DNA of 64,000 nt from a virus. Its lineage: Duplodnaviria > Caudoviricetes. The notes under the pieces were generated by a model. That model was not told where the DNA came from. It saw only the letters and a list, made by a program, of their open reading frames with translations, and did no database searches. Position numbers and translations under genes: made by a program. The stretch is taken from the IMG/VR virus record IMGVR_UViG_3300042477_000769; one strand, written 5' to 3'. How positions within the stretch are numbered: position 1 is the stretch's first letter; every line of letters begins with the position of its first letter. Shown piece by piece: positions 11,502-46,701 of the stretch.

Positions 11502-12260
11502 ATGAATAAGCCGGCTTATAAAAAAATATTAGAACATCCAGATAAGGATGAAATTATTTCGAAATTGGTCATTGGTATTTCTGCCAGTGATATTCATGAA
11601 TGGTTAAAAATTAAGTATAGTGCTGTGAGTGAAGCTAAATTAGTCTTATCAGAAAAACACATTAAATCTTTTAATGATAATTATTTAGATTTTTATAATG
11701 ATATGTTGCAAGACGTTGCGGCTACTAAAACTGGTATGACTAATAAACCAGAAGATGAATTAAAATTAGCGGTCAGAAATAATCCAACTTATAAAGACGC
11801 GTTACTAAAAGTAGCTAATAATGAGTTAGATATTGAACGAATTATGGCCACGATGGCGATTAATGTAGAAACTCGAATGGCTCAAGTATTTGATGAGATG
11901 ATGGAAGATCCTCGCAATATTAATACCAAAGTGGATCGATTATTTGCAGAATACGCTGATATTTTAGGTAATTTATTAGATAAATATCATAAATGGAAAG
12001 AAAAACCAGCAGCTGATCAAGTGATTCAGCATAATGTTACTTTACAGGTTGTAGATCAGCATATTTCAGTATTTCATGATGTAATTAAAGAGGTGTTGTC
12101 TCAAATGGATTTAGAGACCTCCATGTACTTTATGGAAGTGTTTGCAGAAAAAATGGCAAAATTAAAACAACCGACCCATGAAGCTGGACCCAGTCAAGAA
12201 ATGAAATTAGCTGAAGCAAAACTATTAAATGAAACTATTAACCAAAAAGTTAATCAATGA
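11502..12260 (+). CDS. Hypothetical helical protein, possibly small terminase
   Basis: N-terminal HTH-like segment and long helices; first gene after the terminator in the packaging region. Function is only a guess. Confidence 0.35.
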   Translation: MNKPAYKKILEHPDKDEIISKLVIGISASDIHEWLKIKYSAVSEAKLVLSEKHIKSFNDNYLDFYNDMLQDVAATKTGMTNKPEDELKLAVRNNPTYKDALLKVANNELDIERIMATMAINVETRMAQVFDEMMEDPRNINTKVDRLFAEYADILGNLLDKYHKWKEKPAADQVIQHNVTLQVVDQHISVFHDVIKEVLSQMDLETSMYFMEVFAEKMAKLKQPTHEAGPSQEMKLAEAKLLNETINQKVNQ

Positions 12261-14074
12261 AAACCCTGTTATCTACCTCAACATTAGATCTTCATCCTTA
12301 CCAAGATGAAGAATTAGAGCTTTCAGACGAAATGAAAGTAAAATTAGAAAAATTAATGGAATTTTTTGATGAGTATTCTATTGATTATGATAAATTCAAG
12401 TTAGATAATATTCCTACCTTAGATTTTGGTAAGAAGGATGCTTATCCTAATAATCGAGATTATTTTAATATTCCGGGTCAACATAATACTCAGAAGTGGC
12501 TAGAAACGGTAAAAAATATTTATCGAAGTGAACAACAAGGTGAAAATAGAGTGCAAGCTATTCGTCGGGCCACCAATGGTTGGCATATTATGGAAACCTT
12601 TGATTTTCTTAATTGGGTGAAGTTTTATGAGTCTGGAGATCATATGAAGTATAAATTTGCCAAATTGTGGTATGAAAATGATGATTTGGGTCCGGGTTAT
12701 TTCTTACAAATTAAACAAGATGAATCGGTTCCTGAAAAACACACCTCCGGTCAAGATATTGATTTTGCTCGAGAAACTGCCGTTTCAGATACTCAAAAAC
12801 GACAAACAATTGAAAAACAGCGTAATAAAATAATTGGTCGATTAGATTCTGCAGAAAAATTACTACGTTCTCCAGAAGGCAATATTTTCTCTGGCAAAGA
12901 ATTCCAATCTTTATTGGAAGCCATTTATGAATTAAAGAAAAAAATTCAAATGATTAATAAGGTTAGCACCTCTACTAAATTATATGAAGATATGATTATT
13001 AGAGAAGCTAATGTGTTAAATAAACGTGGATTTTATCAAGCTGCTAATTTATTAGCCTCTTATGCTCAAACTCCGGCCGCCTCGGGAGAATCGGCGACTG
13101 GTACACCCTCCGGAACAGAGGTAGTAGCTCCAGCTTCTGCAGGAGATCCTGCTGGAGCCGGTCATCCAGGAGCCCCAGGAGGATTACCTTCTACTGGACC
13201 CGGCATGGCTCCAGGAACCAGTGCGTCTGGGACAGTAAATACACCACCAGCTATTGAAGAATTTTTATCTGGTTTAAATAATGGGCAATACGCTCCTAAA
13301 GATAAGCAATTATCAGAAGACTCTTTAGAGGTAGAAGATAATTTAGAAGTTAATGAAGAAGAGTTATTAGTCACTGAAGCTCAACTTGCTACTCCTAAAT
13401 TAGAAGTGGATGAGCCAATTACTACTTCTCCAGCCCCGGCTCCTTTGGATCCTGCTCCAGTGGCCGCGCCTACCACTCCAGAGGCAGATCCAGATAAACC
13501 AGTCACTAAAGAAGAGTTAGAAATTTCAGAAGAGGATATTGAAAGAGCTAAACATAGAAAATTAACTCCTAATTTTGACACTAAAGTTAATGAAGTATTC
13601 TCTAATATTACTATTGCTGATGTAGTAGTTAAATTAGAAGATTTAGCTAAAATCTTCAAAATTAGAGAAGTGCCTCGTCAATTAGGCATTGTAGATATGA
13701 TGTTAGATAGTTTAGGATTAGCCTCTTTCTTCCCCTCCTTATCAGAAGCTACTAATAAAGCTTTAGAATCTAATAATTATATTTCTACTCGTTTAGAAGA
13801 TATTTTATCTAAATTACATGGAGCCATGGCTACCAAAGAAATTGATTTGACGGGAGAAGAACCCCCTTCCAATCCAGAAGTAGATAAAATTAAAGAAAAA
13901 TTAAAGCAAGATGAGAATAAAGATAAAGCCAGAAAACAAATGAGAAAACAACAGGAAATGTCGGAATTAGAAAATAAATCTAAAGAAACTCCTGAAATAG
14001 AAATCGAAGAAGATTTATCGGTCCCTCCTGCTCCAGTAGCACCCGTGACACCACCACCCGCCGTCAAACCATAA
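12257..14074 (+). CDS. Hypothetical protein with Pro/Ala/Gly-rich and acidic linkers
   Basis: 605-aa ORF; shared motif EANVLNKRGFYQAANLLASYAQ. Confidence 0.65.
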   Translation: MKTLLSTSTLDLHPYQDEELELSDEMKVKLEKLMEFFDEYSIDYDKFKLDNIPTLDFGKKDAYPNNRDYFNIPGQHNTQKWLETVKNIYRSEQQGENRVQAIRRATNGWHIMETFDFLNWVKFYESGDHMKYKFAKLWYENDDLGPGYFLQIKQDESVPEKHTSGQDIDFARETAVSDTQKRQTIEKQRNKIIGRLDSAEKLLRSPEGNIFSGKEFQSLLEAIYELKKKIQMINKVSTSTKLYEDMIIREANVLNKRGFYQAANLLASYAQTPAASGESATGTPSGTEVVAPASAGDPAGAGHPGAPGGLPSTGPGMAPGTSASGTVNTPPAIEEFLSGLNNGQYAPKDKQLSEDSLEVEDNLEVNEEELLVTEAQLATPKLEVDEPITTSPAPAPLDPAPVAAPTTPEADPDKPVTKEELEISEEDIERAKHRKLTPNFDTKVNEVFSNITIADVVVKLEDLAKIFKIREVPRQLGIVDMMLDSLGLASFFPSLSEATNKALESNNYISTRLEDILSKLHGAMATKEIDLTGEEPPSNPEVDKIKEKLKQDENKDKARKQMRKQQEMSELENKSKETPEIEIEEDLSVPPAPVAPVTPPPAVKP

Positions 14075-14075
14075 C

Positions 14076-16427
14076 ATGAAATTACGTAATTTATTAGATC
14101 AAATGCAATCTATATCTAATAAAATCGGCTCGTCTCAGCCGATGATCTGTGGAGGTACGCCTCGGGATCAGTATATGGAAAGATTAGATCATATTGCTGA
14201 TCTAGATATTACTACTGGAGATAAAAAAGTACAATTTTTAGCGCAAGAATTTGGTAATGCATTAGCTAAACAATATGATGTCACGACTAAAATTCATGAA
14301 GATGGTCACGGAACTATTTATTTAGGTGATTTTAAAATTGATTTTTCTTCCAATTTTAATATTCCTAATATTGATAATATTTTGATTAAACAAGGTATTA
14401 CTAAGCCAACTAGTATGCAAAAAGAAATGTTTAGTCGAGATTTTACTTGTAATTCATTATTATTATCCTTAGATCTAAAAAATGTCATCGATCCTACTTA
14501 TCACGGATTACAAGATATTGATCAGAAAATAATTAGAACTTGTTTATCTCCAGAAATTACTTTATTAACTAATAAAAATAGAGTGGTTCGTGCTATTTAT
14601 TTGGCCTCCAAATTAGATTTTAATATTGATCCCAATATTATCAGCTATGTGGCGGCACATCCAGAGTCAGTAAAAATCTCGACTCCTAAATCTTTAACAG
14701 AAAAACTAAATTCTGCTTTTGAATTTAATCCGGAACGTGCCGCTTTTTATCTGACTCAGATGAATTTGTGGAATTATGTTCCTATTACTCCTGTTATGAG
14801 ACCATTTTTTATGAAAAAAAATACCACCGTTTCTTATATTTTATCTAAATATGCTGCCATTTCATCCGTGTCAGAAGCCAAACAATTGTTTGGTTTATTG
14901 GAAAATTTTACAGAAGAAGATGTAAAAAAGAAATATAAAGAATTAGTGGTGAAAAATTATCCCGATGTTAATCCTGTTAATGGTCATGAGAAAATGTTAG
15001 ATATTACTCAAGCTAAAGAAATACTATTAAAAAGCCTGACTACTCCAGAGCCTGTATTATTAAAGGAAGAAGAACCATGGAGACATTCTTATCATACGCC
15101 TGTCTCTGAATATATGGATGATGAAAAATGGGAATATTATACCAATCCAGAAATATTTAAACAATATCAAAAAGATTTTGAAGCTGAGCAAAATTATCAT
15201 CAATATGATGAGGATAGTTCAAGATTAAGAGAACAAGCAGAAGAAGATAGAATTTATAATCTCAGAGATAATATCGTCTCTATTTTAGAAAAAGTTAACC
15301 CGAATAAATTAGTAGAAGATTTTGGAGTGGATCTCGATGCCACTTCAATAAAAGAACTAGGTTTAGGTAATTTAGCCTCAAATCAAGATGGAATAGAATT
15401 AAGTGATTTAATTTCAGCGGCTATTCTCGAGATCATCTATTATGACCATCCTAAATATTTACCTAAATTATTAGAATTAGATTATTTTAAAAATGCAGTT
15501 CGTTCAAATAATTATATGAACAAGAACATGTCAGACTTGCTAAACAAGATAGATAATGAAAATATTAATAAATTATTTTTGACCAGTAAACTTTCTCTTA
15601 AAGATTTATCTAATTATCGAGATGAGCAGGGTATTATTGATGTGTTATTAAATAATCAAAATAAAGTAGTTACTGATTTATTGCAAGCTAAAAATCCACT
15701 AGATATGGTAGTTTGGTTTAGCGCTCCAGTGTTAAAAAATGTTTCTTACATCTTGCTAGACCAAGAACAAACTAAGCCGATAGTAAAATTATTAGATTTG
15801 GTTAAGAGACAATTAAACCAAAAAATAAAAACAGCTTATTTTCAAGGTGGGGGAGGAGTCAACGAACCCACTCCGAAAAAACGAAAATATAAAATAGATC
15901 CGGCCGAAGTAGTCCAGCCGAGATTTGAAGAGCCGTTTTATCGTAATTATGATCTATATAATGTTCCTGGTAAATATGGTCCGGGCACTAGAAAAAATCC
16001 TAAAAACTTAAAAGGCAAATATAAAGCTAAAAAAACTGCTCGAACTAAAGTCTTATCTAATCTCTTAAAAGTAGCCATTGACTTTCCTTCTGATAACCAA
16101 GTTAATCCAGAATTAATTACTGGTCAGCAAAATAACTTAATGGAATATCTTAATCCGGCCGGAGGATATTTAGATAAATATCTTCCTGATAATGATTTGG
16201 AAGATAAAGACCCCACCAAATTAAACTTTGGTCGAGATTATGCCGATCAACCCACAGGGCCTAAAATCGATAATATTGAAAAATTATTAGAACAATATTT
16301 GCCGACTGATTTGTATGGATTACCAGATGGAGTCGATGTCACAGAAGAAGAATTAGACCAACCTAATGATATTAATCCATTTTATGGTACCTTAGGCCCT
16401 AATAGTTTGATTCATCAACGCTACTAA
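14076..16427 (+). CDS. Divergent CCA/poly(A)-polymerase-family nucleotidyltransferase fused to a J-domain-like segment and a long C-terminal extension
   Basis: Motif A GGTPRD..DLD; motif B EMFSRDFT; motif D region TNKNRVVRA; J-like EAKQLFGL..EDVKKKYKELVVKNYPD..EKMLDITQAKEIL. Confidence 0.75.
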   Translation: MKLRNLLDQMQSISNKIGSSQPMICGGTPRDQYMERLDHIADLDITTGDKKVQFLAQEFGNALAKQYDVTTKIHEDGHGTIYLGDFKIDFSSNFNIPNIDNILIKQGITKPTSMQKEMFSRDFTCNSLLLSLDLKNVIDPTYHGLQDIDQKIIRTCLSPEITLLTNKNRVVRAIYLASKLDFNIDPNIISYVAAHPESVKISTPKSLTEKLNSAFEFNPERAAFYLTQMNLWNYVPITPVMRPFFMKKNTTVSYILSKYAAISSVSEAKQLFGLLENFTEEDVKKKYKELVVKNYPDVNPVNGHEKMLDITQAKEILLKSLTTPEPVLLKEEEPWRHSYHTPVSEYMDDEKWEYYTNPEIFKQYQKDFEAEQNYHQYDEDSSRLREQAEEDRIYNLRDNIVSILEKVNPNKLVEDFGVDLDATSIKELGLGNLASNQDGIELSDLISAAILEIIYYDHPKYLPKLLELDYFKNAVRSNNYMNKNMSDLLNKIDNENINKLFLTSKLSLKDLSNYRDEQGIIDVLLNNQNKVVTDLLQAKNPLDMVVWFSAPVLKNVSYILLDQEQTKPIVKLLDLVKRQLNQKIKTAYFQGGGGVNEPTPKKRKYKIDPAEVVQPRFEEPFYRNYDLYNVPGKYGPGTRKNPKNLKGKYKAKKTARTKVLSNLLKVAIDFPSDNQVNPELITGQQNNLMEYLNPAGGYLDKYLPDNDLEDKDPTKLNFGRDYADQPTGPKIDNIEKLLEQYLPTDLYGLPDGVDVTEEELDQPNDINPFYGTLGPNSLIHQRY

Positions 16428-16442
16428 TGTTATAGATCCAGG

Positions 16443-17552
16443 ATGAGTCAACGGTCCTCTTTAATGGCTTGGACTCAAGCCGCTCTCGCTAAACATCATA
16501 ATTACTATGATTATTCTGCGGCAGTGTACCGTGGCAGTGATAGTAAAATTACTATTATTTGTCCGATTCATGGTAAATTTGAACAAACTGCCGGATCACA
16601 TTTAAAAGGTCATGGTTGTTCAGTCTGCTCGTATCAACAACGAGGCCGGCAAAAATCTTTGACCTTATCTCAATTTGTAGAAAAATCTCAATTAATCCAT
16701 GGAGTTACTTATGATTATTCATTAGTAACATTTGTTAATATTTTAACAAAAGTTAAGATAATTTGTTCTATTCACGGAGAATTTGAAATTCTACCCAAAT
16801 TCCATTTAGCCGGCCATGGATGTCAGCAATGCGGAAAAATAAATAAATCTAATAAACTGCGAGCTTCTACTCAAGATTTTATTGAAAAAAGTGAGAAAAT
16901 ACATGATCATAAATATGATTATCATCAAGTAAATTATATAACTTCTAAGCATAAAGTAACTATTACTTGTCCACTTCACGGTAATTTTAATCAAGTAGCT
17001 GGAGATCATTTAGCTGGTTATGGTTGCCCGAAATGTTCCAAATTATACCGTCCGACTACTGCAGAATTTATTGCCAGCGCACAATTAATTCATCAATTCA
17101 AATATGATTATAGTTTAGTCAATTATCAATCCAGTAAAATTAAAATTCCCATTATTTGTTCCGTCCATGGGACTTTTTGGCAAACACCTCATGCTCATAT
17201 TATTGGCAAATGTGGATGCCCTAATTGTAGTAATTGGAGTTCTAAAAAAGAACAAGCTTGGATTCAATCCTTAAATAATCCGAATCTTAAACTTCAACAA
17301 ACTATCAAAATTAATAATCGAATCTTTAAGGTGGATGGGTTTGATCCTGCTACTAATACTATTTACGAATTTTACGGAGATTTTTGGCACGGCAATCCTC
17401 AAGTCTATTCAGCTGAAGCGGTAAATTCCATTAATAAAAAGAAATTTGGAGAGCTGTATTTAGCTACGTTGGAGAAAGAAAATATATTGAAAAATCATTA
17501 CCATTTAGTCCATATTTGGGAATATGATTGGGATTTGTTAACAAAAACCTGA
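16443..17552 (+). CDS. Zinc-ribbon-repeat PD-(D/E)xK-type putative homing endonuclease
   Basis: Four repeats YDYS..Y......ITIICPxHG.F.Q....HL.G.GC..C; C-terminal KVDGFDPATNTIYEFYGDFWHGNP..HIWE. Confidence 0.8.
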   Translation: MSQRSSLMAWTQAALAKHHNYYDYSAAVYRGSDSKITIICPIHGKFEQTAGSHLKGHGCSVCSYQQRGRQKSLTLSQFVEKSQLIHGVTYDYSLVTFVNILTKVKIICSIHGEFEILPKFHLAGHGCQQCGKINKSNKLRASTQDFIEKSEKIHDHKYDYHQVNYITSKHKVTITCPLHGNFNQVAGDHLAGYGCPKCSKLYRPTTAEFIASAQLIHQFKYDYSLVNYQSSKIKIPIICSVHGTFWQTPHAHIIGKCGCPNCSNWSSKKEQAWIQSLNNPNLKLQQTIKINNRIFKVDGFDPATNTIYEFYGDFWHGNPQVYSAEAVNSINKKKFGELYLATLEKENILKNHYHLVHIWEYDWDLLTKT

Positions 17553-19438: not shown

Positions 19439-20152
19439 ATGGGCAAGCCAAAATCCAACACGGCAGAATTTATTGCTAAAAGCAATAAAAAACATCGTCA
19501 TTTTTATGATTATCAACAAGTGGATTATATTACTCAACATATTCCAGTCGTTATCAAGTGTCCTATTCACGGATTTTTTACTCAAAAACCAAAAGCACAT
19601 TTACGGTATGGATGTAATAAGTGTGCCCAAGAAGTAAGATTAAAATCAATTCGAAAAACTAGTGAAGAGATATTATCTCAGTGTTTCTTAGTGCATCAAG
19701 ATCGATATGATTATTCTAAGATGCAATTTCTTTCGACTCGCCAAAAAGTAGAAATAATTTGCAAAATCCATGGGCCGTTTTGGCAGACGATGCATGATCA
19801 TTTGGCCGGCAAAGGCTGTGCTAAATGCATTAATAAAGTATCCAAAAACGAAACTCGATGGTTAGATTTAATGAGCATCGACCCAAAATTTAGAAATTAT
19901 AAAATTAACTTAAGCAAGTCATATTATGTCGATGGATATGATCCAATGACTAAAACTATTTACGAGTTCAATGGTGATTATTGGCATGGTAATCCTAGTA
20001 AATTTTGTCCGGATAAAATTAATAATCATACTAAATGTAGTTTTGGTCAATTATATCAACAAACTTTAGCTAAAGAAGTAGAGTTTAAAAAACATGGCTA
20101 TAAAGTTATATCTATTTGGGAAGTTGATTTTGTGAATATTTATGGCCGATGA
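19439..20152 (+). CDS. Zinc-ribbon PD-(D/E)xK-type putative homing endonuclease (paralog of 16443..17552)
   Basis: IKCPIHG, IICKIHG, YVDGYDPMTKTIYEFNGDYWHGNP, SIWE. Confidence 0.8.
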   Translation: MGKPKSNTAEFIAKSNKKHRHFYDYQQVDYITQHIPVVIKCPIHGFFTQKPKAHLRYGCNKCAQEVRLKSIRKTSEEILSQCFLVHQDRYDYSKMQFLSTRQKVEIICKIHGPFWQTMHDHLAGKGCAKCINKVSKNETRWLDLMSIDPKFRNYKINLSKSYYVDGYDPMTKTIYEFNGDYWHGNPSKFCPDKINNHTKCSFGQLYQQTLAKEVEFKKHGYKVISIWEVDFVNIYGR

Positions 20153-22472
20153 TAGTTTATTTTTAAAATTAAAGAATCAATTGATGATGTTAGATCCGGT
20201 AGTCTTTGTGGAATCTAACCTGACATTAGATGGCAAGCCTTTTAGATTGCGAGGGAATGGATATCGACCCTTTGCGGAGATTTATCGGTATATTGGGATT
20301 AAGGCGTTGGAGCCAAATTCGAAGCCGATCATTATCGTGAAAGGTAGACAAGTGGGCGCCACCACCATGGCCTCCGCCCTAGAAATGTACTTCATGGGCT
20401 CCGGCATTTTTGGCACCGGCAGCAAGCCTCCGGTTCGAATTATTCATGCCTTTCCCCAATTAGAATTAGCGGCAGCCTACTCTAAAACCAAATTAAATCA
20501 AATTATTTCTTCTTCGGTCCCATTACCATCAGATCCCAATAATAAGTCATTAAAGCCCAAAGCTTATATGCAATCGTTATTGGATCAATCTACTTCCACT
20601 AATGATTCGTTACATTTTAAGCAATTTGTAGGTGGTAATCATTTATGGATTGAGTCTGTGGGTTTAGATGGTGATAGAGTAATGGGACGCAGTGCGGATA
20701 TTATCTTCTTTGATGAATGTTTTCCGTATAATCAAAAAATAGCAACTAATCAAGGTAAAAAATCTATTGGTCAATTATATGATTTATTTACCAATAATCA
20801 AAATGTTCCATTAGTTTTAACTTTTAATTTAGAAAATGAAAATTTTGAATACAAAAAAATTGTTAATGTCTTTAATCGTGGAGATAAAAAATTAGTTAAT
20901 ATTAAATTAAGTGGAAGAAAAATTTCATGTACTGATAATCATCGGTTTCTGACTGAATTTGGCTGGAAAGAAATAAAAGATATTCCTATTGGAACATTAA
21001 TTAAAAGCTACGATGATACTTATAAAAAAGTTAGTTGGTTAGTTTTAGATAGCATTGAATATTCGAATGAGACAAAAACAGTCTATGATATTGAAGTAGA
21101 AGATAATCATAATTTTATTTTGGCGCCAAATAAAAATGGAAAGCATCAAGGTGGTCCGATAGTTCATAATTGCCAGAAAACTACTAGTATTGCCATTGGA
21201 AATTCTCTTAAAACTTTAACAACAGCCAAATATGGTAAACCGTCTAAAGGAGTTCAAGTTTATTTTGGAACTCCTAGAAGAAAAGGCTCTGATTTCCATA
21301 AAATGTGGCAAACTTCTTCTCAACAATATTATTATTTAGGATGTGGAAAATGTAAAGAATATTTTCCTCTATATACTCCTGGATCAGATGATTGGAAGAA
21401 TATTTGGATTTATGGATTTATGGTTAAATGCCCACATTGTGGTCATGAGCAAAATAAATTAGAAGCGGCAGAAAGAGGTAAATGGACTGCCTTACGAGAC
21501 CCAGATGATCCGGATTGCAAAATGGTTGGGTTCCATATCAATCAATTATACATGCCTATGTTTAGTCGAGAAGATATGGATAATGAAATGCCGGGGAATC
21601 ATCCTATTAATACTGAACGTGTCTTCATGAACGAAGTTATGGGAGAATTCTTTCAAGGAGATTCTAGTCCCATTACTCCAGAAGAAATTAAAGAGAAATG
21701 TGGAGATGACCGTAAATTTAGTGCTCGTATTGCTCCTTCTCGAAATGGTACCGATCAACAAATCGTAGTCTTAGGTATCGATTATGGTGCTAGAGCAGAC
21801 GTAGAACAATTAGCCGATATTGAAAATTCTAAATCTAAAGGTCAATCCTATAGTACAGCAGTGGTGTTATCGGCTAAAGGCCCAGGATTATTACATATTG
21901 AATTTGCCACTAAATTTAAAAGAAACGATCCGGAAAGCAAAAAGGGTCTGATTGAACAAATTATTAGACAATATGGTGTGAATTTAGCGATTGGTGATAT
22001 TGGATATTCTAATGATTTTTCTCAAACGTTACATCAAATTTATGGGGACAAATATATTGTCTCTCGTGCTCATCCAAAAGTCAATAATCATATCAAATAT
22101 AGTATAGATGCTTTTCCCAAAGAATTAGTCTTTGAAAGAGATTATTATATTGGAGAATTATATGAACAATTAAAGAATGGGATGATTAAGTTTCCTTTTG
22201 GAGACTATGAAAAAATTGCTTGGTTAATTGATCATTGTTGTAGTATGGAAATTAAGCCCTCTATTTCTCGAATGGGGGCGGATCCTCAAATCCATTATGT
22301 CAAGGGCGGAACTCCCAATGACGGATTTATGGCCTTATTGAATGCCTATTTGGCATATAAATTTATCATTACTAAGGGATTTACTAATAATAATCCTATT
22401 TTGCAAAAATCTAATTTTTCTAATATGAATAAGCCATTAGTAACTGGTGGTTATATTTCTCGTAAATTCTGA
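20142..22472 (+). CDS. terL: Terminase large subunit (lambda GpA-like), intein-containing
   Basis: Walker A KGRQVGATT; Walker B IIFFDE; YFGTP; Zn clusters CGKC and CPHC; nuclease VLGIDYG..AIGDIGY..PND. Confidence 0.92.
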   Translation: MADDSLFLKLKNQLMMLDPVVFVESNLTLDGKPFRLRGNGYRPFAEIYRYIGIKALEPNSKPIIIVKGRQVGATTMASALEMYFMGSGIFGTGSKPPVRIIHAFPQLELAAAYSKTKLNQIISSSVPLPSDPNNKSLKPKAYMQSLLDQSTSTNDSLHFKQFVGGNHLWIESVGLDGDRVMGRSADIIFFDECFPYNQKIATNQGKKSIGQLYDLFTNNQNVPLVLTFNLENENFEYKKIVNVFNRGDKKLVNIKLSGRKISCTDNHRFLTEFGWKEIKDIPIGTLIKSYDDTYKKVSWLVLDSIEYSNETKTVYDIEVEDNHNFILAPNKNGKHQGGPIVHNCQKTTSIAIGNSLKTLTTAKYGKPSKGVQVYFGTPRRKGSDFHKMWQTSSQQYYYLGCGKCKEYFPLYTPGSDDWKNIWIYGFMVKCPHCGHEQNKLEAAERGKWTALRDPDDPDCKMVGFHINQLYMPMFSREDMDNEMPGNHPINTERVFMNEVMGEFFQGDSSPITPEEIKEKCGDDRKFSARIAPSRNGTDQQIVVLGIDYGARADVEQLADIENSKSKGQSYSTAVVLSAKGPGLLHIEFATKFKRNDPESKKGLIEQIIRQYGVNLAIGDIGYSNDFSQTLHQIYGDKYIVSRAHPKVNNHIKYSIDAFPKELVFERDYYIGELYEQLKNGMIKFPFGDYEKIAWLIDHCCSMEIKPSISRMGADPQIHYVKGGTPNDGFMALLNAYLAYKFIITKGFTNNNPILQKSNFSNMNKPLVTGGYISRKF
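20718..21170 (+). mobile_element. Mini-intein (Hint only, 151 aa) directly after Walker B of TerL
   Basis: Begins CFPYNQKI; block B CTDNHRF; block F VYDIEVEDNHNF; ends IVHN; +1 Cys; splicing restores FFDE-CQ. Confidence 0.92.
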
Positions 22473-22527: not shown

Positions 22528-25500
22528 ATGGCTAAAAATAAATTAACACGTTGGGATGGCCCTTCTAAATCGGAGCAATATTTAGCATCTCGATCTGATG
22601 TACCGCAAGTTAGCGCTTTGATGGCAAAATCAGTGTCACAGTTTAGACGAGATGGAATCTCAAATGAAGTCAATCAAGGATTTTTTCGTGATGGTTCGGG
22701 CCCGTCAGCCTCAGAAGATGGTAGTACGGTTAATGGAAGGGTAGTATCTTCAGTTGGTCAAAATAAATTTGCTCAAGTAGTTAGCTCTTCTGGAGGAAAC
22801 TATCGTGGTGGTAACGGAGATACTGTTAAACAATCTCCAGAAGTTTATTCTCCATTATGGTTGAATTCTAATTTAAACTTACCACGAGATAGAGCCACTA
22901 TTAATGCTTGGTGTCGCAGCTTTTATGCACTAAATCCCTTTGTCCATAATGCTATTAATTTGCATAGCACTTATCCTATTAGTAAATTAAATATTACTTG
23001 TCCCAATAAAGAAATTGAAAGATTCTTCAATGATATGATTGAAGAAATTGATTTAATGAATGTCTGCGTTCAAATTGCCCAAGAATATTGGTTATTGGGA
23101 GAGTCTTTCGTCTATTCAGAATTAGATGAAAGTCGTGGCAAATGGAGCCGGTTATTAATTCAAAATCCAGATTATATGATTGTCAAACGTACTGTAGTGG
23201 CGAATGAGCCCATCATTATGTTACGCCCGGATGAAAATTTAAAGAAAATTATCTTTTCTAATCGACCTACTGATATTGAGCAAAGAAAACAATTAAATAG
23301 TCACATTATTAATTCCGTTAAACGTGGCGAGAATATTCCTTTAGATAATTTTCATGTCTCTCATTTGGCGAGAAGAATTAGTCCGTATGAAATCCGAGGG
23401 ACGGGGTTGCCGGTGTGTATTTTCCGGCAGCTGATGTTGTTTGATAAGTTACGCGAGTGCTACTCCGCTGACACCGAAGTTCTCACCAATCAAGGTTTTA
23501 AAAAAATCACCGACCTTTTACAAGTCAATAATACAGTCAATCATAAACTAGCTCGTATTAAACTAGCCTTAGTAGATGATAATAACCAAGTTAATTATGA
23601 TTATCCTGAAAATTTATCTATTGAGCAATATTCTGGTCAAATATTTTCGGTGACTGGTAAAAAAGTAGATTTAGCAGTTTTACCAACTAGTTGGTTAGAT
23701 GTAGCTAAAACTGATAATAACTTTCAAAAGGTGATGGCCTCTTCTTTATTAGAAAAGAAATCCTATTATCAATTTAATTCTCAAGTCCAATTTAATAATA
23801 CTGACCATCCGGCCACCGTGGTAGTCAATGGCAAGCATATTCCAACCGAATTATACTTAAAAGTATTAGGCTATTTGGTCTCCGAAGGATGCATTTATGC
23901 TAATGATCAAAATAATAGACATGATGCGTCTATCTCGGTCAGTCAATTAACTTCTAGTGATTGTTATCAAGAGATGAGAGAGTCTTTTGATGTATTTGCC
24001 CAATTATTAAATAAAAAGGCTAATCATACTGTTAAAGTAATTGGTTCTGGATATTCTGCTCATACTCCCAAAGAAAAATGGCAAGTAGTGATTCATGGCA
24101 AAGATCTCGTTGACCATTTTAAAAAAGAAATTGGTACTAATCAAAATACCTTATCGGCTCATAAATGTTTGCCTCGATGGGTATTAAATTTAACTCCCGA
24201 ATTAATGAATACATTATTGCAGGCATTAGTTAAAGGAGATGGCTCAGAACGAGTAGCAAATAAGTCGACTAGTTTTAAATATTCTACCATTTCTAAGCAA
24301 TTAGCTGATGATGTATATGAATTAGTATTTAAATTAGGGTTTGCGCCGAATCTGTGTATTTCTACTGCGACTAAAACCAATAACAAATCAGTGACAGAAT
24401 ATATTGTCATGTGGTCGACTACTGAGTATGGCAATCATCCATATGTCTGTTCTTTTGATCACAAGAATAAATTTGGTGGTGCGACTATTGCTCTTAATGA
24501 GTATACTGGTAAATTATGGAATATTGCGACCAATAAAAAAGTTATTTCTAGAAGAAATGGTAAAATCACAGTCCAATATGCTAATTCTTATGATGAGCAC
24601 ACTGAAATTTTAACAGAAGAAGGCTTTAAATATTTACACCAATTAGAGAAAGATAATTACATTAATGGCATCATTGTCAATGAGGATCAATCATTATCGT
24701 TATTAACTTTGAAAGATGATATTAAAATTGCTTGTGTTAATCCTAAGACTCAAGCCATGGAATATCATACGCCTATTGAAATGCATATGTCTCACTATGA
24801 TGGAGATATGATTCATTTTCAAGGTAAAAAAGTAGATTGCTTAGTTACTCCCAATCACAAAATGTGGGTCAATCCAATTATTAACAATCAAGAAATGGGA
24901 TATGCTAAAATTCCAGCTCGAGAATTATCCGTTGGACATTCTTATAAATTTAATAATGTTATTGATTGGGCCGGTAATAATGTAGAGTCGGTAACAGTCA
25001 TTGATAAACAAGTTCCGATTGAGGTATATTTAAAATTTATTGGCAATGTGATTAGTGAGGGTTGTGTTGATAGTAGTTTGAATAAAAAAACCAATCAACA
25101 TAGAAATAGGGTGGTAGTTACTCAATTAACGCAATCTTTATATTATCGCAATATGAGAGAGAATATTGAAAATTTTGCTCAGATTTTCGATAAAAAAGTA
25201 TCTACCTCCATTAAAGTTAAAGGCGGAGGCTTCTCGGCTCATTGTCCCAAAGAACAATGGAGCGGAACTATTTATTATAATTTGCTCAATAAGTACTTAA
25301 TTGAGACTATTGGGATCGATGGTAAGTGTGATTCTAAAAACAAACGAATTCCTAGATTTGTTTTAGATTTATCTCCAGATAAATTGCAAATTATTTTAGA
25401 CGCTTTATTGGATGGTGATGGTTCTAGAAAGAAATTAAATAACTCGCAATCGTCTTATAAGTATTCTACTGCCTCTAAACAATTAGCAGATGATGTTTAT

Positions 25501-26601
25501 GAGTTAGTTTATAAATTAGGATATGTGCCTATTTTACAAGCTTTCAAGAGAAAGACTTGTACTGAATATGTAATTCGATGGTCTGATACTAATAAAGGGT
25601 TAACACCTAAAATTAATGGTAGCGGTAAAAATCAAAAAGGCGCTTCTTTTAACAAAGTAAATTATCATGGTTTGGTGTGGTGTTTTGAGGTACCGACGGG
25701 ATTGTTTGTGACGAGAAGAAATGGGAAGGTGACGGTGCAGGGGAATTCGAAGTACGCCCAGGCGGATAATATGGTAAACCCCCTCACCCTGGTCAAAATC
25801 GGCACCGACGCTGCCGACGGCCTTCACCCCACCTTTGCCGACCTAGAAGCCTGGCGCAATGTCTTTGAGCAAGCTCAATATGATAAGGATTTTAAGATTT
25901 TTACTCATTCTGGCGTAGCGGTAGAACGAGTGGGTTATGGTCAAGGCATTTATGACATTTCTGGAGATATTACCCAAATTATTAAAGAGATTTATGTTGG
26001 GTTACAAGTACCGCCGGTATTAATGGATGGTGGCGCGGATACCACTTATGCTAATGGTAGTGTGGCCTTGGATGTATTAAAGCAACGCTATATGCAATTC
26101 CGAAACATGCTATCTACTTGGTTAAAGAGAAAAATCTTCGCTCCTATTTCTAAGATCCAGGGATTTTATGATTATTCTCATGGAGAAAAGCAATTAATTG
26201 TGCCCGAAGTAGATTGGAATCATATGGCATTATTTGATGCTGGTGATTATATTAATACTTTGTTAACCTTAACGCAAGGCGAAGGAGACGCTAAACGTGC
26301 GTCATTGCATACGCTGTATCGTTCTTTGGGTCTAGAGTTTGAAGATGAAATTAGAAAGATGAGAAAAGAATCGATTCAAAGTGCGATCGCTGTAAAAGAG
26401 AAAGAGTCTTTAGCGGCTATGGATTTGAATGCCTTACGAGCCTTGGATGAAGAGGATGAAATTCCAGAAATAGAAAAAGATCCTAATGAGGCTGGTGGTA
26501 GTGAGGGAGCTTTACCAGGACAAGATGCTGGTGGAGGACTTCCTGGATTAGAGAAGGGTTCGGGAGAAGAACCTCCAGTCCCACCTCCACCTGGAGCGTA
26601 A
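22528..26601 (+). CDS. Portal protein containing two tandem inteins (about 594 aa after splicing)
   Basis: Position after terL; portal-like segments NPFVHNAINLHS, QEYWLLGESFV..QNPDYM, SPYEIRGTGL, LQVPPVLMDGG..YANGSVAL; SD AGGA upstream. Confidence 0.85.
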   Translation: MAKNKLTRWDGPSKSEQYLASRSDVPQVSALMAKSVSQFRRDGISNEVNQGFFRDGSGPSASEDGSTVNGRVVSSVGQNKFAQVVSSSGGNYRGGNGDTVKQSPEVYSPLWLNSNLNLPRDRATINAWCRSFYALNPFVHNAINLHSTYPISKLNITCPNKEIERFFNDMIEEIDLMNVCVQIAQEYWLLGESFVYSELDESRGKWSRLLIQNPDYMIVKRTVVANEPIIMLRPDENLKKIIFSNRPTDIEQRKQLNSHIINSVKRGENIPLDNFHVSHLARRISPYEIRGTGLPVCIFRQLMLFDKLRECYSADTEVLTNQGFKKITDLLQVNNTVNHKLARIKLALVDDNNQVNYDYPENLSIEQYSGQIFSVTGKKVDLAVLPTSWLDVAKTDNNFQKVMASSLLEKKSYYQFNSQVQFNNTDHPATVVVNGKHIPTELYLKVLGYLVSEGCIYANDQNNRHDASISVSQLTSSDCYQEMRESFDVFAQLLNKKANHTVKVIGSGYSAHTPKEKWQVVIHGKDLVDHFKKEIGTNQNTLSAHKCLPRWVLNLTPELMNTLLQALVKGDGSERVANKSTSFKYSTISKQLADDVYELVFKLGFAPNLCISTATKTNNKSVTEYIVMWSTTEYGNHPYVCSFDHKNKFGGATIALNEYTGKLWNIATNKKVISRRNGKITVQYANSYDEHTEILTEEGFKYLHQLEKDNYINGIIVNEDQSLSLLTLKDDIKIACVNPKTQAMEYHTPIEMHMSHYDGDMIHFQGKKVDCLVTPNHKMWVNPIINNQEMGYAKIPARELSVGHSYKFNNVIDWAGNNVESVTVIDKQVPIEVYLKFIGNVISEGCVDSSLNKKTNQHRNRVVVTQLTQSLYYRNMRENIENFAQIFDKKVSTSIKVKGGGFSAHCPKEQWSGTIYYNLLNKYLIETIGIDGKCDSKNKRIPRFVLDLSPDKLQIILDALLDGDGSRKKLNNSQSSYKYSTASKQLADDVYELVYKLGYVPILQAFKRKTCTEYVIRWSDTNKGLTPKINGSGKNQKGASFNKVNYHGLVWCFEVPTGLFVTRRNGKVTVQGNSKYAQADNMVNPLTLVKIGTDAADGLHPTFADLEAWRNVFEQAQYDKDFKIFTHSGVAVERVGYGQGIYDISGDITQIIKEIYVGLQVPPVLMDGGADTTYANGSVALDVLKQRYMQFRNMLSTWLKRKIFAPISKIQGFYDYSHGEKQLIVPEVDWNHMALFDAGDYINTLLTLTQGEGDAKRASLHTLYRSLGLEFEDEIRKMRKESIQSAIAVKEKESLAAMDLNALRALDEEDEIPEIEKDPNEAGGSEGALPGQDAGGGLPGLEKGSGEEPPVPPPPGA
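23458..24585 (+). mobile_element. Portal intein 1 (376 aa) with LAGLIDADG domain; splicing motifs degenerate
   Basis: Starts CYSADTEVLT; LGYLVSEG and QALVKGDG; ends KITVQYAN; block B reads VLPTSW with no TxxH. Confidence 0.8.
24586..25746 (+). mobile_element. Portal intein 2 (387 aa) with LAGLIDADG domain
   Basis: Starts SYDEHTEILT; block B VTPNH; IGNVISEG and DALLDGDG; block F VWCFEVPTGLFV; ends TVQGN; +1 Ser. Confidence 0.88.
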
Positions 26602-32364: not shown

Positions 32365-35300
32365 ATGTTTCTTAAAATAGGTGAAGCTATAGAAATTAAT
32401 GGAGTAGAGAGCACTGAGTCTTGTCTACCCGCTGTCAATCCCGAAATTTTAGAAAATTTCAAAAAAATCGCCTCTAATTTAAAAAAGATTGCCCCCAAGG
32501 CCGAGGACTTTCTCTACTTCTCTGCCGTAATGATGCATGCCGCAGAGGCAGCCGCTCTCAACGATGACGGCACCCGCAAACTCAATGCCAAAGGCCAACC
32601 AGTCGAAGTAGGTTGGGATAAACGAGGAAACACTTGGAGATGGACTTCTAATGACCCCAATGTGAGACCTTATAAAAATGCGAATGGCGATATTTTTCCA
32701 GAAGAAGAATTAGTTAAAGCCTATAAAAAATGGGTAGGAAAACCTCTGTGCATTGATCATAAATCCAGTTCCGTCGATCATGTCAGAGGTTTTATCGTTG
32801 ATACTTACTATGATCGTAATTTAAAACGAGTGATTGCTTTATGCGCTTTAGATAAGGCTGGTTACCCTCAATTAGCTAGACAAGTAGCTACTGGAGTTTC
32901 TAATTGTGTATCCATGGGTACGGCGGTAGGAAAAGCTATTTGTTCTGATTGTGCCACCGTAGCTAGAACAGAACATGATTTTTGTGATCATATGAGACGC
33001 AAATCATGTTATGGAGAAATTAATTTAGATTTAAATCCTATAGAATTATCGATAGTAGTAAATGGTGCAGATCCTAAAGCTAGCATTAAGCATATTATTG
33101 CGGCGGCTAACACTTTAAATTCTTATGTAGAAAGCAAACAACAAGAAATAAATAAGTTTGCGGATAATTTTAGCGCTCGTTTGAGTTTTAATGTTGGGGA
33201 TCAAAGAGATAATGCTTCGGTCACTGATATTGAAGTTAATTCTAGTGATTTAGAAAATTTCAAAAAAGATGTTGAAAAAGCTATTGCAGATTTCCAGGAA
33301 CTGCAATCTTCATTAAATGAAGAAGAAAAAATGCAAGAACATACTAATGAAACTGCATTTGATCAATTGCCAGAAGAGATTAACTCTTCGGCTGATTCTG
33401 GATTGGCTCCCCCACATGCAAGATTTGCATCCGCTAAAGTAGGGGTGGACCCTATTGCTGAGCTTCAAGAGGTCACTAAAGGTATTGAGGCCAAGTTAAG
33501 CCAAATGAAACACAGCTTAGATAAGTTAGTAAACACTTCTACACATACACAAGAGGAAACTATGTCAGGTACAAACAATATGAATAAGAAAGGTTATTAC
33601 CAAGGCGCTGGTGGAGTTAATGAACCTACTCCAGGACAAGCTAAATATCCTAAAGATCCGTTAAACGAGCAATTACGTGAACGGGAAGATAAACAAATGG
33701 TTGGTCAATCAGGATTCCCTGGTGTTGGACCCGTGGATGGAATGCATCCCAGCCCAGATTCGGCAGAACCTGCTAATGAATTAGAGCGCAAAAAAATGTT
33801 AGCTCGGGCAGAATCCGAAGAGCGCGCAGTTCGCCGACAAGCCATTATTAATTTAGCTAAATCAGCCTTAGAGAATAAGCAAGCTTATTTCCAAGGTGGT
33901 GGCGGCGTGAATGAGCCCACTCCTGGTAAAACCAAATATCCTGCTGACAAGTTAAATGAACAAGCTCGTGATAAAGAAGATAAGCAAATGGTTGGCCAAA
34001 AACCTTTCCCTGGTGTAGGCCCGGTCGATGGATTACACCCTAGTCCTAGTTCGGCTGATATGGCAGACGAATTAAAGCGTAAAGAAATGTTACGCCGAGC
34101 CTCTACCCTGAGTGCTAAATTTGCTTATGCTAGCAATAATGACGGTTCGATTAATAAAGGTGATTGTGCGTGGGAAGTTTATCGTGGCGACAAATTAATT
34201 TTGAGCGCTTCAGTTAATGAATTATCTGGTGGAAAACCAAATAAATTATATGCCAACATTGCTACCAAACCATTTGGAGCTAAACTATTAGAAAAAGTAA
34301 AAGCTCATGGAGTAGATAAAGTTCGTGCCTTAGTTAAAAGCGCTCAAGTTGCTCCTGAAATGACCCAAGAAATGGCGCCTCCTGCTGAAGCAGCTCCGGC
34401 TCCGGCTCCTGCTCCTGCTCCAGCTGGATTAGATCCAGTAGAAGACGCAGGTAAATCTGGCGATGTCAAAGAGTCTGCTTCTGAGTTAGCTGAAAAAGTT
34501 AGAGATTTAAGCTCTGATTTAGTAGAAACAGTTCGCGCGTTAGAAGGCGAAAAAGCTGAAATGGGCGAAGTAGATGGCGCCGGTGGCGAGATGGCCGCTG
34601 CAGCTTCCTTTAGTACCAAAACATTAAATTCTTTTAGAAAAGAATTAAATGGAATGTTAACAGAAGCGATGAAAGAAGCGGTAGCTAGTTTAGATGGTCA
34701 TGCGGAAGAATTAGATCTTATTAGTGGATTATATGATAAGGGAGTGGTATCCACAGCCAATCAAGAATTAGTAAATAACATTGCAGAAGATGCCTTAACA
34801 GAAGCTAAGACTGCAGTGGCTGATGGATTCAAATTAATGTCTGCTTTCGTGAAGTATGCTCGTGGCACTCAAGCTATTGTCAAACGTGCAGAAATTGAAG
34901 CTGAACTTGAAGCATTAGCTGAAGGAGAAAATATGGATGGCGTACATAGCAGTAACGATGGCGATGATGATTTAATGGCCATGATTTCTGACACTAATTC
35001 TGAATTAGAAGATGTCAAATCTTTAATGGAAGAAGATAAAGACATGGAAGATGAACATGAAAAATCATTATTTGAAACTGTCGTAGAAGAAGGCGAAGTG
35101 GAAGCTGACGCTTTAGCTGATGATCATAAAGATGATGACAATGATCTCAAGGCTGGAGATTTGAAGCCAGAAACTCAACTCAAGCCAGAAATGTTATCTC
35201 AAGCCTTTAATAGCAAAGCTGGTCGCGCTGCCTTAAGAGCCAAATTAGCTGCTGATGCCTTAGGTAAACAAGATGATGGTCAAGTTCAAGATATGTCGCG

Positions 35301-35964
35301 GGCTCATTTTAGCGATATGTTAGATGAGGCTAATGATTTAGCTGATGGTCAAACAGAATTAGATGTAAAGCCTTCTAATAACTTAGGTTATGTAGAAACC
35401 TTATCGGAAGTTAACAAATCCATGATGGATTTGGCTAAAGCTCCACCTAAGGTTCGTAAAGAGGCTGAAGCTATTCACAAATTAGTCTCGGAAGGCAAAT
35501 TAGATCCATCAGATTTAGATGAATTAGTCTCTGAAGGATTAGATAAAGATGCCGTAGCTTACTACCGCAAATACTGGGGTCAAGTAGATGGTGGCTCTGA
35601 ATTTGCTAATGAATTAGCTAAAGAGCATGTGAAAGCTAAGATGGAAGAAGAGCTAAATAACTATAAAGTTAAAATTGCTAGAGCTTATGAATTAGCTTAT
35701 GATATGGTGGAACGTGGTTTGTGCGCTTCCGATCGTATTCATGTGACAGCTCAAGTAGAAGAAATTATGAAGTTTAATGATGAGTCATTTGAATCTTTAA
35801 AGAGAGTCGTCGCTCAACATAACCCAATGTTACAAAAGTCTGCTCATCGTATGCCGCAAGTAGGGTTTATTGGTGCGGGCGAAACTCATAGTGCAACATC
35901 CGCAGATGATGATTGGTCTCAATTATCGGCAGCATTTGCTAAGACTAACAAAAGATTATTCTGA
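32365..35964 (+). CDS. Prohead (capsid maturation) protease fused to a long acidic scaffold region
   Basis: NGDIFPEEEL..GKPLCIDH..VRGFIVD..VSMGT..IELSIVVNGADPKA (assemblin-type His/Ser pattern), then an acidic coiled-coil region; lies between portal and MCP. Confidence 0.8.
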   Translation: MFLKIGEAIEINGVESTESCLPAVNPEILENFKKIASNLKKIAPKAEDFLYFSAVMMHAAEAAALNDDGTRKLNAKGQPVEVGWDKRGNTWRWTSNDPNVRPYKNANGDIFPEEELVKAYKKWVGKPLCIDHKSSSVDHVRGFIVDTYYDRNLKRVIALCALDKAGYPQLARQVATGVSNCVSMGTAVGKAICSDCATVARTEHDFCDHMRRKSCYGEINLDLNPIELSIVVNGADPKASIKHIIAAANTLNSYVESKQQEINKFADNFSARLSFNVGDQRDNASVTDIEVNSSDLENFKKDVEKAIADFQELQSSLNEEEKMQEHTNETAFDQLPEEINSSADSGLAPPHARFASAKVGVDPIAELQEVTKGIEAKLSQMKHSLDKLVNTSTHTQEETMSGTNNMNKKGYYQGAGGVNEPTPGQAKYPKDPLNEQLREREDKQMVGQSGFPGVGPVDGMHPSPDSAEPANELERKKMLARAESEERAVRRQAIINLAKSALENKQAYFQGGGGVNEPTPGKTKYPADKLNEQARDKEDKQMVGQKPFPGVGPVDGLHPSPSSADMADELKRKEMLRRASTLSAKFAYASNNDGSINKGDCAWEVYRGDKLILSASVNELSGGKPNKLYANIATKPFGAKLLEKVKAHGVDKVRALVKSAQVAPEMTQEMAPPAEAAPAPAPAPAPAGLDPVEDAGKSGDVKESASELAEKVRDLSSDLVETVRALEGEKAEMGEVDGAGGEMAAAASFSTKTLNSFRKELNGMLTEAMKEAVASLDGHAEELDLISGLYDKGVVSTANQELVNNIAEDALTEAKTAVADGFKLMSAFVKYARGTQAIVKRAEIEAELEALAEGENMDGVHSSNDGDDDLMAMISDTNSELEDVKSLMEEDKDMEDEHEKSLFETVVEEGEVEADALADDHKDDDNDLKAGDLKPETQLKPEMLSQAFNSKAGRAALRAKLAADALGKQDDGQVQDMSRAHFSDMLDEANDLADGQTELDVKPSNNLGYVETLSEVNKSMMDLAKAPPKVRKEAEAIHKLVSEGKLDPSDLDELVSEGLDKDAVAYYRKYWGQVDGGSEFANELAKEHVKAKMEEELNNYKVKIARAYELAYDMVERGLCASDRIHVTAQVEEIMKFNDESFESLKRVVAQHNPMLQKSAHRMPQVGFIGAGETHSATSADDDWSQLSAAFAKTNKRLF

Positions 35965-46585: not shown

Positions 46586-46701
46586 ATTTTATCGAAAAAT
46601 ATTTTCTATCTTTATAGCAATAATTACTTATAACAATATCACACAATAATTGTGTGGCTGATTTAGTTCGGCAAACAATTCTTTTATACTTTGGAGAAAA
46701 C

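Follow-up and report, generated by a model that had tools for sequence, protein, structure and literature searches.

A mini class II nucleotidyltransferase tied to a scaffold-like peptide in the head gene block of a phage G-like megaphage

Why would a large phage that encodes a complete CCA-adding enzyme also carry a stripped-down relative of that enzyme beside its packaging genes? We addressed this question in a 64,000-nt stretch of Caudoviricetes DNA (IMG/VR record IMGVR_UViG_3300042477_000769; hereafter, the window), where one open reading frame (ORF), P0001, joins a mini nucleotidyltransferase to a J-like insert and a disordered C-terminal part, here called the C-module. An initial annotation had read the gene as a packaged CCA-family transferase with a rewired base-reading motif. 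We find that residues 1-250 are, with confidence, the head and neck of a class II nucleotidyltransferase of the Pol-beta superfamily; that the protein belongs to a large, undescribed family in huge phages distantly related to Bacillus phage G, always located in one conserved block just upstream of the gene for the large terminase, TerL; and that its C-module opens with a peptide shared only with the prohead protease-scaffold protein. The most likely mechanism, which we hold with middling confidence from sequence and by analogy, is that the mini-transferase would be targeted to the prohead and processed by the prohead protease.

The gene is real, and its unusual composition recurs in other runs. 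Positions 14076..16427 match contigs of four other lake-water runs exactly over the stretches compared. In all four, the TAT codon of Y295 (14958-14960) and the junction at 15828 are the same, so that neither the Tyr-Pro-Asp (YPD) tripeptide of the J-like insert nor the fusion is an assembly artefact.

The transferase domain and its altered motifs

The Pfam model PF01743 (PolyA_pol head) matches residues 24-154 (E 4.8e-10; 40.3 bits against a cut-off of 23), PHROGs labels the N-terminus as a tRNA nucleotidyltransferase, and a Foldseek search of the AF2 model against the PDB matched only class II CCA-adding enzymes, over about 240 columns (nearest entries 6qy6/6ibp from Planococcus, 9ns4 (cca2), 4wby/1vfg from A. 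aeolicus, and 1miv). The AF2 model, built with 98 sequences, has a pLDDT above 90 for residues 1-250, 50-60 in the J-like region, 45-75 in the helical insert that follows it and 45-70 in the last 200 residues, which are mostly coil. Because the structural match ends at about 240 columns and only residues 1-250 exceed a pLDDT of 90, the head and neck are present and the tRNA-holding body and tail are absent. A Pfam scan of the ORF found neither PolyA_pol_RNAbd nor tRNA_NucTran2, nor any other Pfam CCA-enzyme domain beyond the head, and the NCBIfam CCA, PcnB and A-adding equivalogs all scored far below their cut-offs (52 versus 290, 44 versus 439, 32 versus 306 and 22 versus 1440 bits). By every membership criterion tested, the sequence is not that of a genuine CCA-adding enzyme: it has neither the RRD nor the EDxxR signature, lacks the body and tail domains and falls short of the NCBIfam cut-offs.

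The window supplies its own contrast case. The canonical full-length enzyme, P0002, carries GGCVRD, RRD and EDALR and matches PolyA_pol, PolyA_pol_RNAbd and tRNA_NucTran2_2; it exists where the initial annotation had put it, and lies on the minus strand. No tRNA genes were found within the 64-kb window. The mini-transferase resembles the class II tRNA nucleotidyltransferases (CCA-, CC- and A-adding) and bacterial poly(A) polymerase I in its head and neck fold, its GGxxRD..DxD and BxA elements, the Arg-Asp pair of motif B, the motif C region and the neck-helix Arg residues. In contrast to the class II tRNA nucleotidyltransferases, it has no body or tail, reads SRD instead of RRD and (S/T)-N-K-N-R instead of E-D-x-x-R, has Tyr in place of the third neck Arg, shares only about 20% identity, scores far below every NCBIfam equivalog cut-off, lies in the head/packaging block and is joined to a scaffold-like signal.

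The catalytic apparatus is strongly conserved. Among 97 aligned close homologues, of which one row (P0100) has no transferase domain, G26, G27, R30, D31, D42, D44, K87 and D89 are each found in 94-97 (K87 in 97/97, D89 in 96/97). Motif A is intact, as had been reported, with GGTPRD at residues 26-31 and DLD at 42-44, and its GG..RD/DxD catalytic residues are unvarying in 33 distant fused members. The reported replacement of RRD by SRD also holds (F-S-R-D-F, residues 119-123): position 120 is Ser in 96/96 close homologues, and SRD occurs in 104 of 107 distant full-length representatives, at identities down to 27%. For the templating motif, the initial annotation was right that EDxxR is altered, but its reading as NKNR is one residue out of register. 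Alignment with PDB CCA enzymes (HMMER) and with the phage's own canonical enzyme (MAFFT) gives T165-N-K-N-R169, where Glu has become Thr, Asp has become Asn and the base-reading Arg is kept. In the 96 close homologues, N168, R169, R172 and Y175 do not vary.

The survey of this motif in homologues, proposed in the initial annotation, has a divided outcome. Position 166 is Asn in 86/96 close homologues (Ser in 8, His in 2), but the corresponding 'Asp' position in the 107 distant representatives holds Asp in 56, Asn in 27 and Ser in 10; their 'Glu' position is Asp in 33, R169 is kept in 103 and R172 in 106. Judged from these alignments, SRD is the hallmark of the whole family, the Asp-to-Asn change marks only the window's subclade, and distant members keep a near-canonical D-D-P-x-R. 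The altered motifs are real and, by their conservation, under purifying selection. The claim of rewired motifs is narrowed accordingly: SRD is general to the family, the Asn is confined to one subclade and the templating Arg is kept.

Two consequences are suggested by these residues. EDxxR makes Watson-Crick-like bonds to the incoming base (PMC2532741) and RRD takes part in ribose recognition (PMC2910056); an altered base or sugar specificity arising from SRD and Asn is plausible. The mini-transferase is also very probably catalytically competent, because its catalytic residues and those of the primer-positioning BxA element (a role taken from PMC2910056) are held down to 27% identity.

A C-module peptide shared with the protease-scaffold protein

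A phmmer search of 1.84 billion representatives returned 2906 matches, with 186 at E<=1e-10 (clusters at 50% identity) and 78 at E<=1e-30. About 95 homologues align at 55-66% identity to residues 1-250 and at 35-55% to residues 570-781, and have no counterpart of residues 256-570. The best-conserved C-terminal stretch, residues 585-638 (65-77% identity), begins with K-x-A-YFQGGGGVNEPTP, and this 25-residue opening recurs twice in a second ORF of the window, the 1199-residue P0115. Apart from the shared peptide, no paralogue of the C-module or the helical insert was found within the window. When back-translated YFQGGGGVNEPTP was searched against 2.9 million viral contigs, it was found in 72 stretches, 47 in the protease-scaffold family of P0115 and 25 in C-modules, with no third family.

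The N-terminus of P0115 is identified as a prohead protease because three comparisons agree: PHROG 18299, head maturation protease (E 1e-14); the NCBIfam prohead protease/major capsid protein (MCP) fusion model (E 4e-7); and gp19 of phage G (33% identity). A phmmer search of the protease region against the PDB returned nothing meaningful. Across this family the first copy of the peptide almost always follows ..Q-E-E-x-M-S-G-.., and AAGAGGAA, contained in the Q-E-E codons, lies 5-8 nt upstream of the ATG of the Met. This nested Met and its Shine-Dalgarno sequence are kept in nearly all protease-scaffold homologues from viral contigs, and they predict a separate scaffold protein of about 800 residues.

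The split relatives of P0001 place the peptide in the same position. There, the transferase ORF stops about 255 residues in. The C-module ORF, read in the +1 frame, has an AAAGGA ribosome-binding site and an ATG that precedes this stop by 14 nt. Its product begins M-S-V-N-K-K-A-Y-F-Q-G-G-G-G, to be compared with M-S-G-x..N-K-x-A-YFQGGGG for the nested scaffold product. These near-identical N-termini imply that the peptide behaves as an N-terminal signal common to two head-related proteins. The 14-nt overlap, always in the +1 arrangement, is present at L010, L011, L015, L037 and 14 other viral-contig loci; some lineages thus have the pair as one fused gene and others as two. We rejected a programmed frameshift between the two ORFs, because a separate ATG with a Shine-Dalgarno sequence opens the C-module ORF 14 nt ahead of the first stop, and because a +1 shift would be needed.

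We then turn to the K-x-A motifs, which the initial annotation took to delimit the domains of the protein. Their number was dropped as evidence: the five K.A triplets in 783 residues (0.6 per 100) equal the window average (0.68). Their positions fare better. K585 is found in 95/97 and A587 in 90/97 homologues; K665 is found in 91/97 and A667 in 73/97, at the division between the basic and acidic parts of the C-module. The third proposed site, SKYA|A, does not stand: it belongs to the lineage-specific insert, and the only sister sequence does not keep it. In distant fused relatives, K.A[QSEAY] occurs within 40 residues after the transferase domain in 16 of 34 representatives, compared with 5% of background windows (binomial 2e-12, a value that ignores shared ancestry). 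These relatives have no YFQGGGG; where the junction occurs, it reads K-(T/K)-A-(Q/S/E) and is usually followed by N-(F/Y)-D-Y-G and poly-Lys/Arg. From these sequences, K-x-A is a candidate cleavage site of the prohead protease.

Similar strings, K-(I/K/Y)-A-(Q/S)-(E/D/V), K-I-A-Q-E among them, are found within the first 3-62 residues of several ORFs of the head region, from the portal gene to the capsid gene, at 26663, 40555, 41697, 43382, 37079 and 46654. The MCP has L-A-K-Y-A-S at residues 38-43, and the ORF after the portal gene begins M-E-K-I-A-Q in 13/13 homologues. By their sequence and position near N-termini, these strings may be prohead protease sites; their conservation is uninformative as evidence, as the neighbouring proteins are conserved throughout.

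The conserved gene block and the J-domain insert

The coordinates of the gene, its parts and its neighbours are collected in Table 1. TerL begins 3.7 kb downstream of the transferase gene, and synteny with TerL, portal, protease-scaffold and MCP genes is strongly conserved. The order w156 - w535 - w258 - w237 - w252 - w605 - transferase - w297 - w315 - TerL - portal - w412 - glucosaminidase is kept in 317-511 kb contigs and at 16 viral-contig loci, and its upstream part is still held in relatives at 33% identity. The placement of the gene in the head module, as initially annotated, is borne out by this synteny; its immediate neighbours are without recognisable function. The AF2 model of the adjacent w605 product (17 sequences) is all-helical with long disordered linkers and a mean pLDDT of 55, and neither w535 nor w605 has a match in the phage collection, PHROGs, Pfam or NCBIfam, or a usable Atlas match.

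Table 1. Positions of the features described in the text (aa, amino acids)
Feature	Coordinates	Strand	Length or basis
P0001, whole ORF: mini nucleotidyltransferase, J-like insert and disordered C-module	14076..16427	+	783 aa
Class II nucleotidyltransferase head and neck, aa 1-255, without body/tail	14076..14840	+	Pfam PF01743, AF2, Foldseek, homologues
Motif A: GGTPRD (aa 26-31) and catalytic D42-L-D44	14151..14207	+	Conservation in homologues
K87-I-D89, BxA element with third carboxylate strand	14334..14342	+	Conservation; BxA role from PMC2910056
Motif B variant F-S-R-D-F (aa 119-123; canonical RRD)	14430..14444	+	Conservation; RRD role from PMC2910056
Motif D variant T-N-K-N-R (T165-R169), aligned to E-D-x-x-R; R172 kept, third Arg replaced by Y175	14568..14582	+	
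J domain with Y295-P-D for HPD, aa about 265-322, lineage-specific insert	14868..15041	+	Pfam DnaJ; sister P0100
Helical acidic insert, aa 323-584, common only to P0100	15042..15827	+	AF2 pLDDT 45-75; no family match
Shared peptide (putative signal) K-T-A-Y-F-Q-G-G-G-G-V-N-E-P-T-P-x3-K-Y-x2-D-P, aa 585-609	15828..15902	+	
Basic Pro/Gly-rich disordered segment, aa 585-667, ending at conserved K665-V-A667	15828..16076	+	24% K+R
Acidic disordered C-terminal segment, aa 668-783; motifs IDFP.D, LDFGRDY, GLPDG and NP.YG conserved	16077..16424	+	20% D+E
P0002, canonical full-length CCA-adding enzyme (contrast case)	52457..53689	-	410 aa; Pfam
P0115, prohead protease-scaffold protein	32365..35964	+	1199 aa; PHROG, NCBIfam, phage G gp19
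Nested in-frame start in P0115: AAGAGGAA, 5 nt, ATG at 33562, then first shared-peptide copy	33562..33660	+	
Second shared-peptide copy in P0115	33874..33951	+	
w605, upstream partner gene, helical with Pro-rich linkers; ends 1 nt before transferase start	12257..14074	+	605 aa; adjacent in all relatives
TerL interrupted by an intein (Intein_splicing aa 206-327; alignments with relatives leave a gap between aa 193 and 344)	20142..22472	+	
Portal with LAGLIDADG intein insert	22528..26601	+	
Major capsid protein (MCP)	46654..47715	+	PHROG 2522, E 1e-76; 53% identity to Bacillus phage G gp27

Between the transferase and the C-module, P0001 contains an insert found in only one other lineage. The J-domain-like segment named in the initial annotation is present: Pfam DnaJ scores residues 272-318 at 27.2 bits within the full-length protein, just under its cut-off of 27.8, and at 28.5 bits in a scan of residues 256-584 alone, and the HPD position holds Y295-P-D, within the NYPD that had been noted. 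The J domain of the sister phage protein, P0100, scores 31 bits and has a canonical H-P-D. The J domain and the helical acidic region (residues 256-570) occur only in this phage and in the sister lineage of P0100; the helical part has no family match in a Pfam scan, and the window's J domain is 34% identical to that of a related phage's DnaJ. Because the insert is limited to two lineages and the sister keeps HPD, the simpler reading is that the J domain was acquired late, within this lineage, and has since lost its His in this phage. Pam16/Tim16 are examples of J-like proteins lacking HPD, and the insert resembles them in having a J-domain signature with an altered HPD tripeptide; unlike in Pam16/Tim16-type proteins, the His-to-Tyr change is recent and confined to one lineage, and the sister keeps HPD. 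The DnaK-binding decoy suggested earlier is not supported as a core feature, and the insert can be explained without it, given the insert's restriction to this phage and one sister, the intact HPD of that sister and a full DnaJ in the phage.

The window itself opens inside the phage's full-length DnaJ gene (2-370, +), whose product is 47% identical to the C-terminal domain of DnaJ from a related 511-kb phage; related phages encode a DnaJ with J, Zn-finger and C-terminal domains at the same place. Further along, two paralogous DUF723/HNH homing-endonuclease genes (16443..17552 and 19439..20152, +) flank w297/w315. Their absence from the same positions in related phages marks them as recent insertions into the conserved block. 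A tyrosine/dual-specificity phosphatase-like protein (30040-30795, +) and a glucosaminidase (27904-28899, +) are encoded between the portal and protease genes and may be further head or tail enzyme cargo. The 2309-residue ORF at 56121-63050 (+) consists almost entirely of collagen-like G-x-y repeats (26% Gly, 14% Pro) with a globular C-terminal domain, has 55% GC in a genome of 35% GC and a strong AT skew, and may encode a giant fibre. In distant relatives, a small Cys-rich protein with C-P-F-G-L-P-I-P is encoded after the transferase or the C-module (L077:10043-10495, L082:10816-11208, L081:7739-8101).

Weighing the candidate roles

In the mechanism that we favor, the shared peptide would take the protein into the assembling prohead core, where the prohead protease would cut the conserved K-x-A sites after A587 and A667. 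Left inside the head would be the transferase (in this phage with its J domain and helical insert), one basic peptide and one acidic peptide. The enzyme would exit with the DNA and, early in infection, extend RNA 3' ends with untemplated nucleotides. Its choice of sugar and base presumably differs from that of CCA enzymes (SRD for RRD, Asn for the templating Asp), and ordinary tRNA repair would be done by the phage's separate full-length CCA enzyme. The C-module is tied to the enzyme covalently here; in many relatives it is encoded by the next gene, which overlaps that of the transferase. We draw an indirect link to head assembly because the gene has a fixed position by packaging and head genes, its peptide is shared only with the N-terminus of the nested scaffold product, the K-x-A junction is conserved, and cell-wall hydrolases are occasionally fused to it: two of 33 fused representatives from the wider family carry Peptidase_M15, and one of these (P0198, L081:5341-7692) also has a phage tail lysozyme domain. 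A more specific version, in which the capsid-loaded, stripped-down transferase has rewritten sugar and base selection and, on ejection, tails or caps 3' ends with nucleotides other than C and A, or with deoxynucleotides, is rather unlikely in our estimate; such an enzyme might act on host tRNA or mRNA or on the ends of the phage genome.

Known systems offer partial precedents. The internal proteins and Alt of phage T4 are trimmed by the prohead protease. The internal proteins share only a capsid targeting sequence that brings them into the scaffolding core (PMC3012670), and packaged enzymes such as Alt are injected together with the DNA (PMC5512222). The present arrangement is similar, with a short conserved N-terminal peptide on otherwise unrelated head-core components, a candidate cleavage site beside it and an enzyme as cargo; the peptide is indeed shared with a prohead-core component, a likeness of arrangement and not a homology to the T4 signal. 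In contrast to T4, the peptide is unrelated in sequence and much longer (about 25 residues), the cargo of the fused forms lies upstream of the signal rather than downstream, and the site is K-x-A rather than (L/I)-x-E. Nested scaffold genes such as lambda C/Nu3 and herpesvirus UL26/UL26.5 are a parallel to the protease-scaffold gene of this phage, where a conserved internal start lies in frame behind a ribosome-binding site of its own; the difference is that here the N-terminus of the nested product is copied onto a second, non-scaffold, enzyme-bearing protein. The phage polyvalent proteins (Iyer et al. 2017) are also multidomain late proteins that combine an enzyme with other modules and vary in their fusions among relatives (here, M15 peptidase, lysozyme and HAD), but P0001 has one catalytic domain and none of their peptidase, MuF or portal-fusion hallmarks.

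The claim of a packaged transferase, already made in the initial annotation, thus gains indirect support from the peptide shared only with the protease-scaffold protein, the enriched K-x-A junction and the hydrolase fusions. Several observations weigh against it. Most family members among the phmmer matches are stand-alone proteins of 240-260 residues; at 18 of 25 viral-contig C-module loci the transferase is an ORF separate from the C-module, with no covalent tie to the signal; and in one distant stand-alone member no C-module gene follows the transferase. The function common to the proteins that bear the shared peptide could be a different one, for example handling by chaperones. The figure for K-x-A enrichment takes no account of descent, and the neighbouring genes have no recognisable family or structural fold. 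The specificity for C and A may be unchanged, since the templating Arg is retained and Asn is still able to act as hydrogen-bond acceptor for an amino group. No cultured relative in the phage collection has the gene, the nearest isolate, phage G, being without the transferase; a megablast search of 12 kb against that collection gave no match, and tblastn of the protein gave only weak matches (22-25% identity), to uncultured phages.

The chief rival, a less likely but serious contender, is a late enzyme that stays in the cytoplasm and repairs RNA 3' ends or tails them to mark decay, with the basic C-module serving as a nucleic-acid-binding arm in place of the body and tail and the shared peptide as a handling signal, for example for the phage DnaJ/host DnaK system. 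The same stand-alone and split members argue for this role, as does the 24% Lys and Arg content of residues 585-667. Two lineages have acquired a J domain next to the module, and that of the sister still has its HPD; the phage also has a complete DnaJ of its own, and one of the 33 fused representatives, the distant relative P0215, carries the HAD domain of 'Swiss Army Knife' RNA-repair proteins. RNA-repair nucleotidyltransferases are moreover common in jumbo phages, where surveys list ordinary CCA-adding enzymes as tRNA-repair genes (PMC7824862). A cytoplasmic role leaves unaccounted for, however, the restriction of the peptide to the scaffold protein and the C-module, its location at the N-terminus of the nested scaffold product, which points to head assembly, the conserved position adjoining packaging and head genes, and the fusion of some relatives to cell-wall hydrolases.

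Other activities appear less probable still. The loss of the first Arg of the ribose motif could have relaxed the demand for a 2'-OH, so that the enzyme would use dNTPs to extend or cap the 3' ends of phage or host DNA, in the head or at ejection. When a ribose-contacting Arg was mutated, a CCA enzyme reportedly became a dCdCdA-adding enzyme (Cho, Verlinde and Weiner in 2007). A packaging-tied DNA-end transferase would suit a gene beside the terminase and a near-invariant SRD where CCA enzymes have RRD, the ribose-recognition signature (PMC2910056), but we consider it improbable, as the protein carries no DNA-binding domain and motif B retains its second Arg and its Asp. Modification of proteins, by AMPylation or UMPylation of a host or head protein, has a slimmer chance again; such a function has been predicted for the Pol-beta superfamily nucleotidyltransferases found in phage polyvalent proteins (PMC5512222), and the tRNA-binding half is missing here, but the head and neck are of the class II RNA type and retain the primer-positioning BxA element and neck Arg residues. 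Comparably slim is the chance that the domain is an inactive relic of a CCA enzyme with only a structural role, as the loss of the body, the tail and two canonical signatures might suggest: all metal-binding carboxylates, GG..RD, BxA, the Arg-Asp pair of motif B and two of the neck Arg residues hardly vary, even in relatives at 27% identity, which is unexpected for a dead enzyme. We know of no class II nucleotidyltransferase that acts on DNA in vivo, and the protein-modifying nucleotidyltransferases known to us belong to other families.

Class II nucleotidyltransferases are the textbook case in which a protein, not a nucleic acid, templates a base, and engineered changes at EDxxR and at a ribose-contacting Arg have reportedly switched which base and which sugar are selected. 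No account of a truncated SRD family or of its tie to a scaffold peptide was found in the literature searched, a limited library. A natural family of at least 186 clusters, without the tRNA-binding half, with SRD fixed and with the templating Asp replaced in one clade, offers a ready-made test of the lone catalytic core. Through its link with the scaffold peptide, the family also yields candidates for a capsid-targeting signal and for a cleavage motif in phage G-like megaphages, a large uncultured group. If packaging is true, an RNA-end-modifying enzyme would join the short list of phage-injected enzymes. If the capsid-loaded enzyme has in addition a rewritten nucleotide selection, it would represent a first-minute step of host takeover or counter-defence; it would form a class of its own, and a new one, among injected enzymes, and would show that the CCA-enzyme template has natural variants in specificity.

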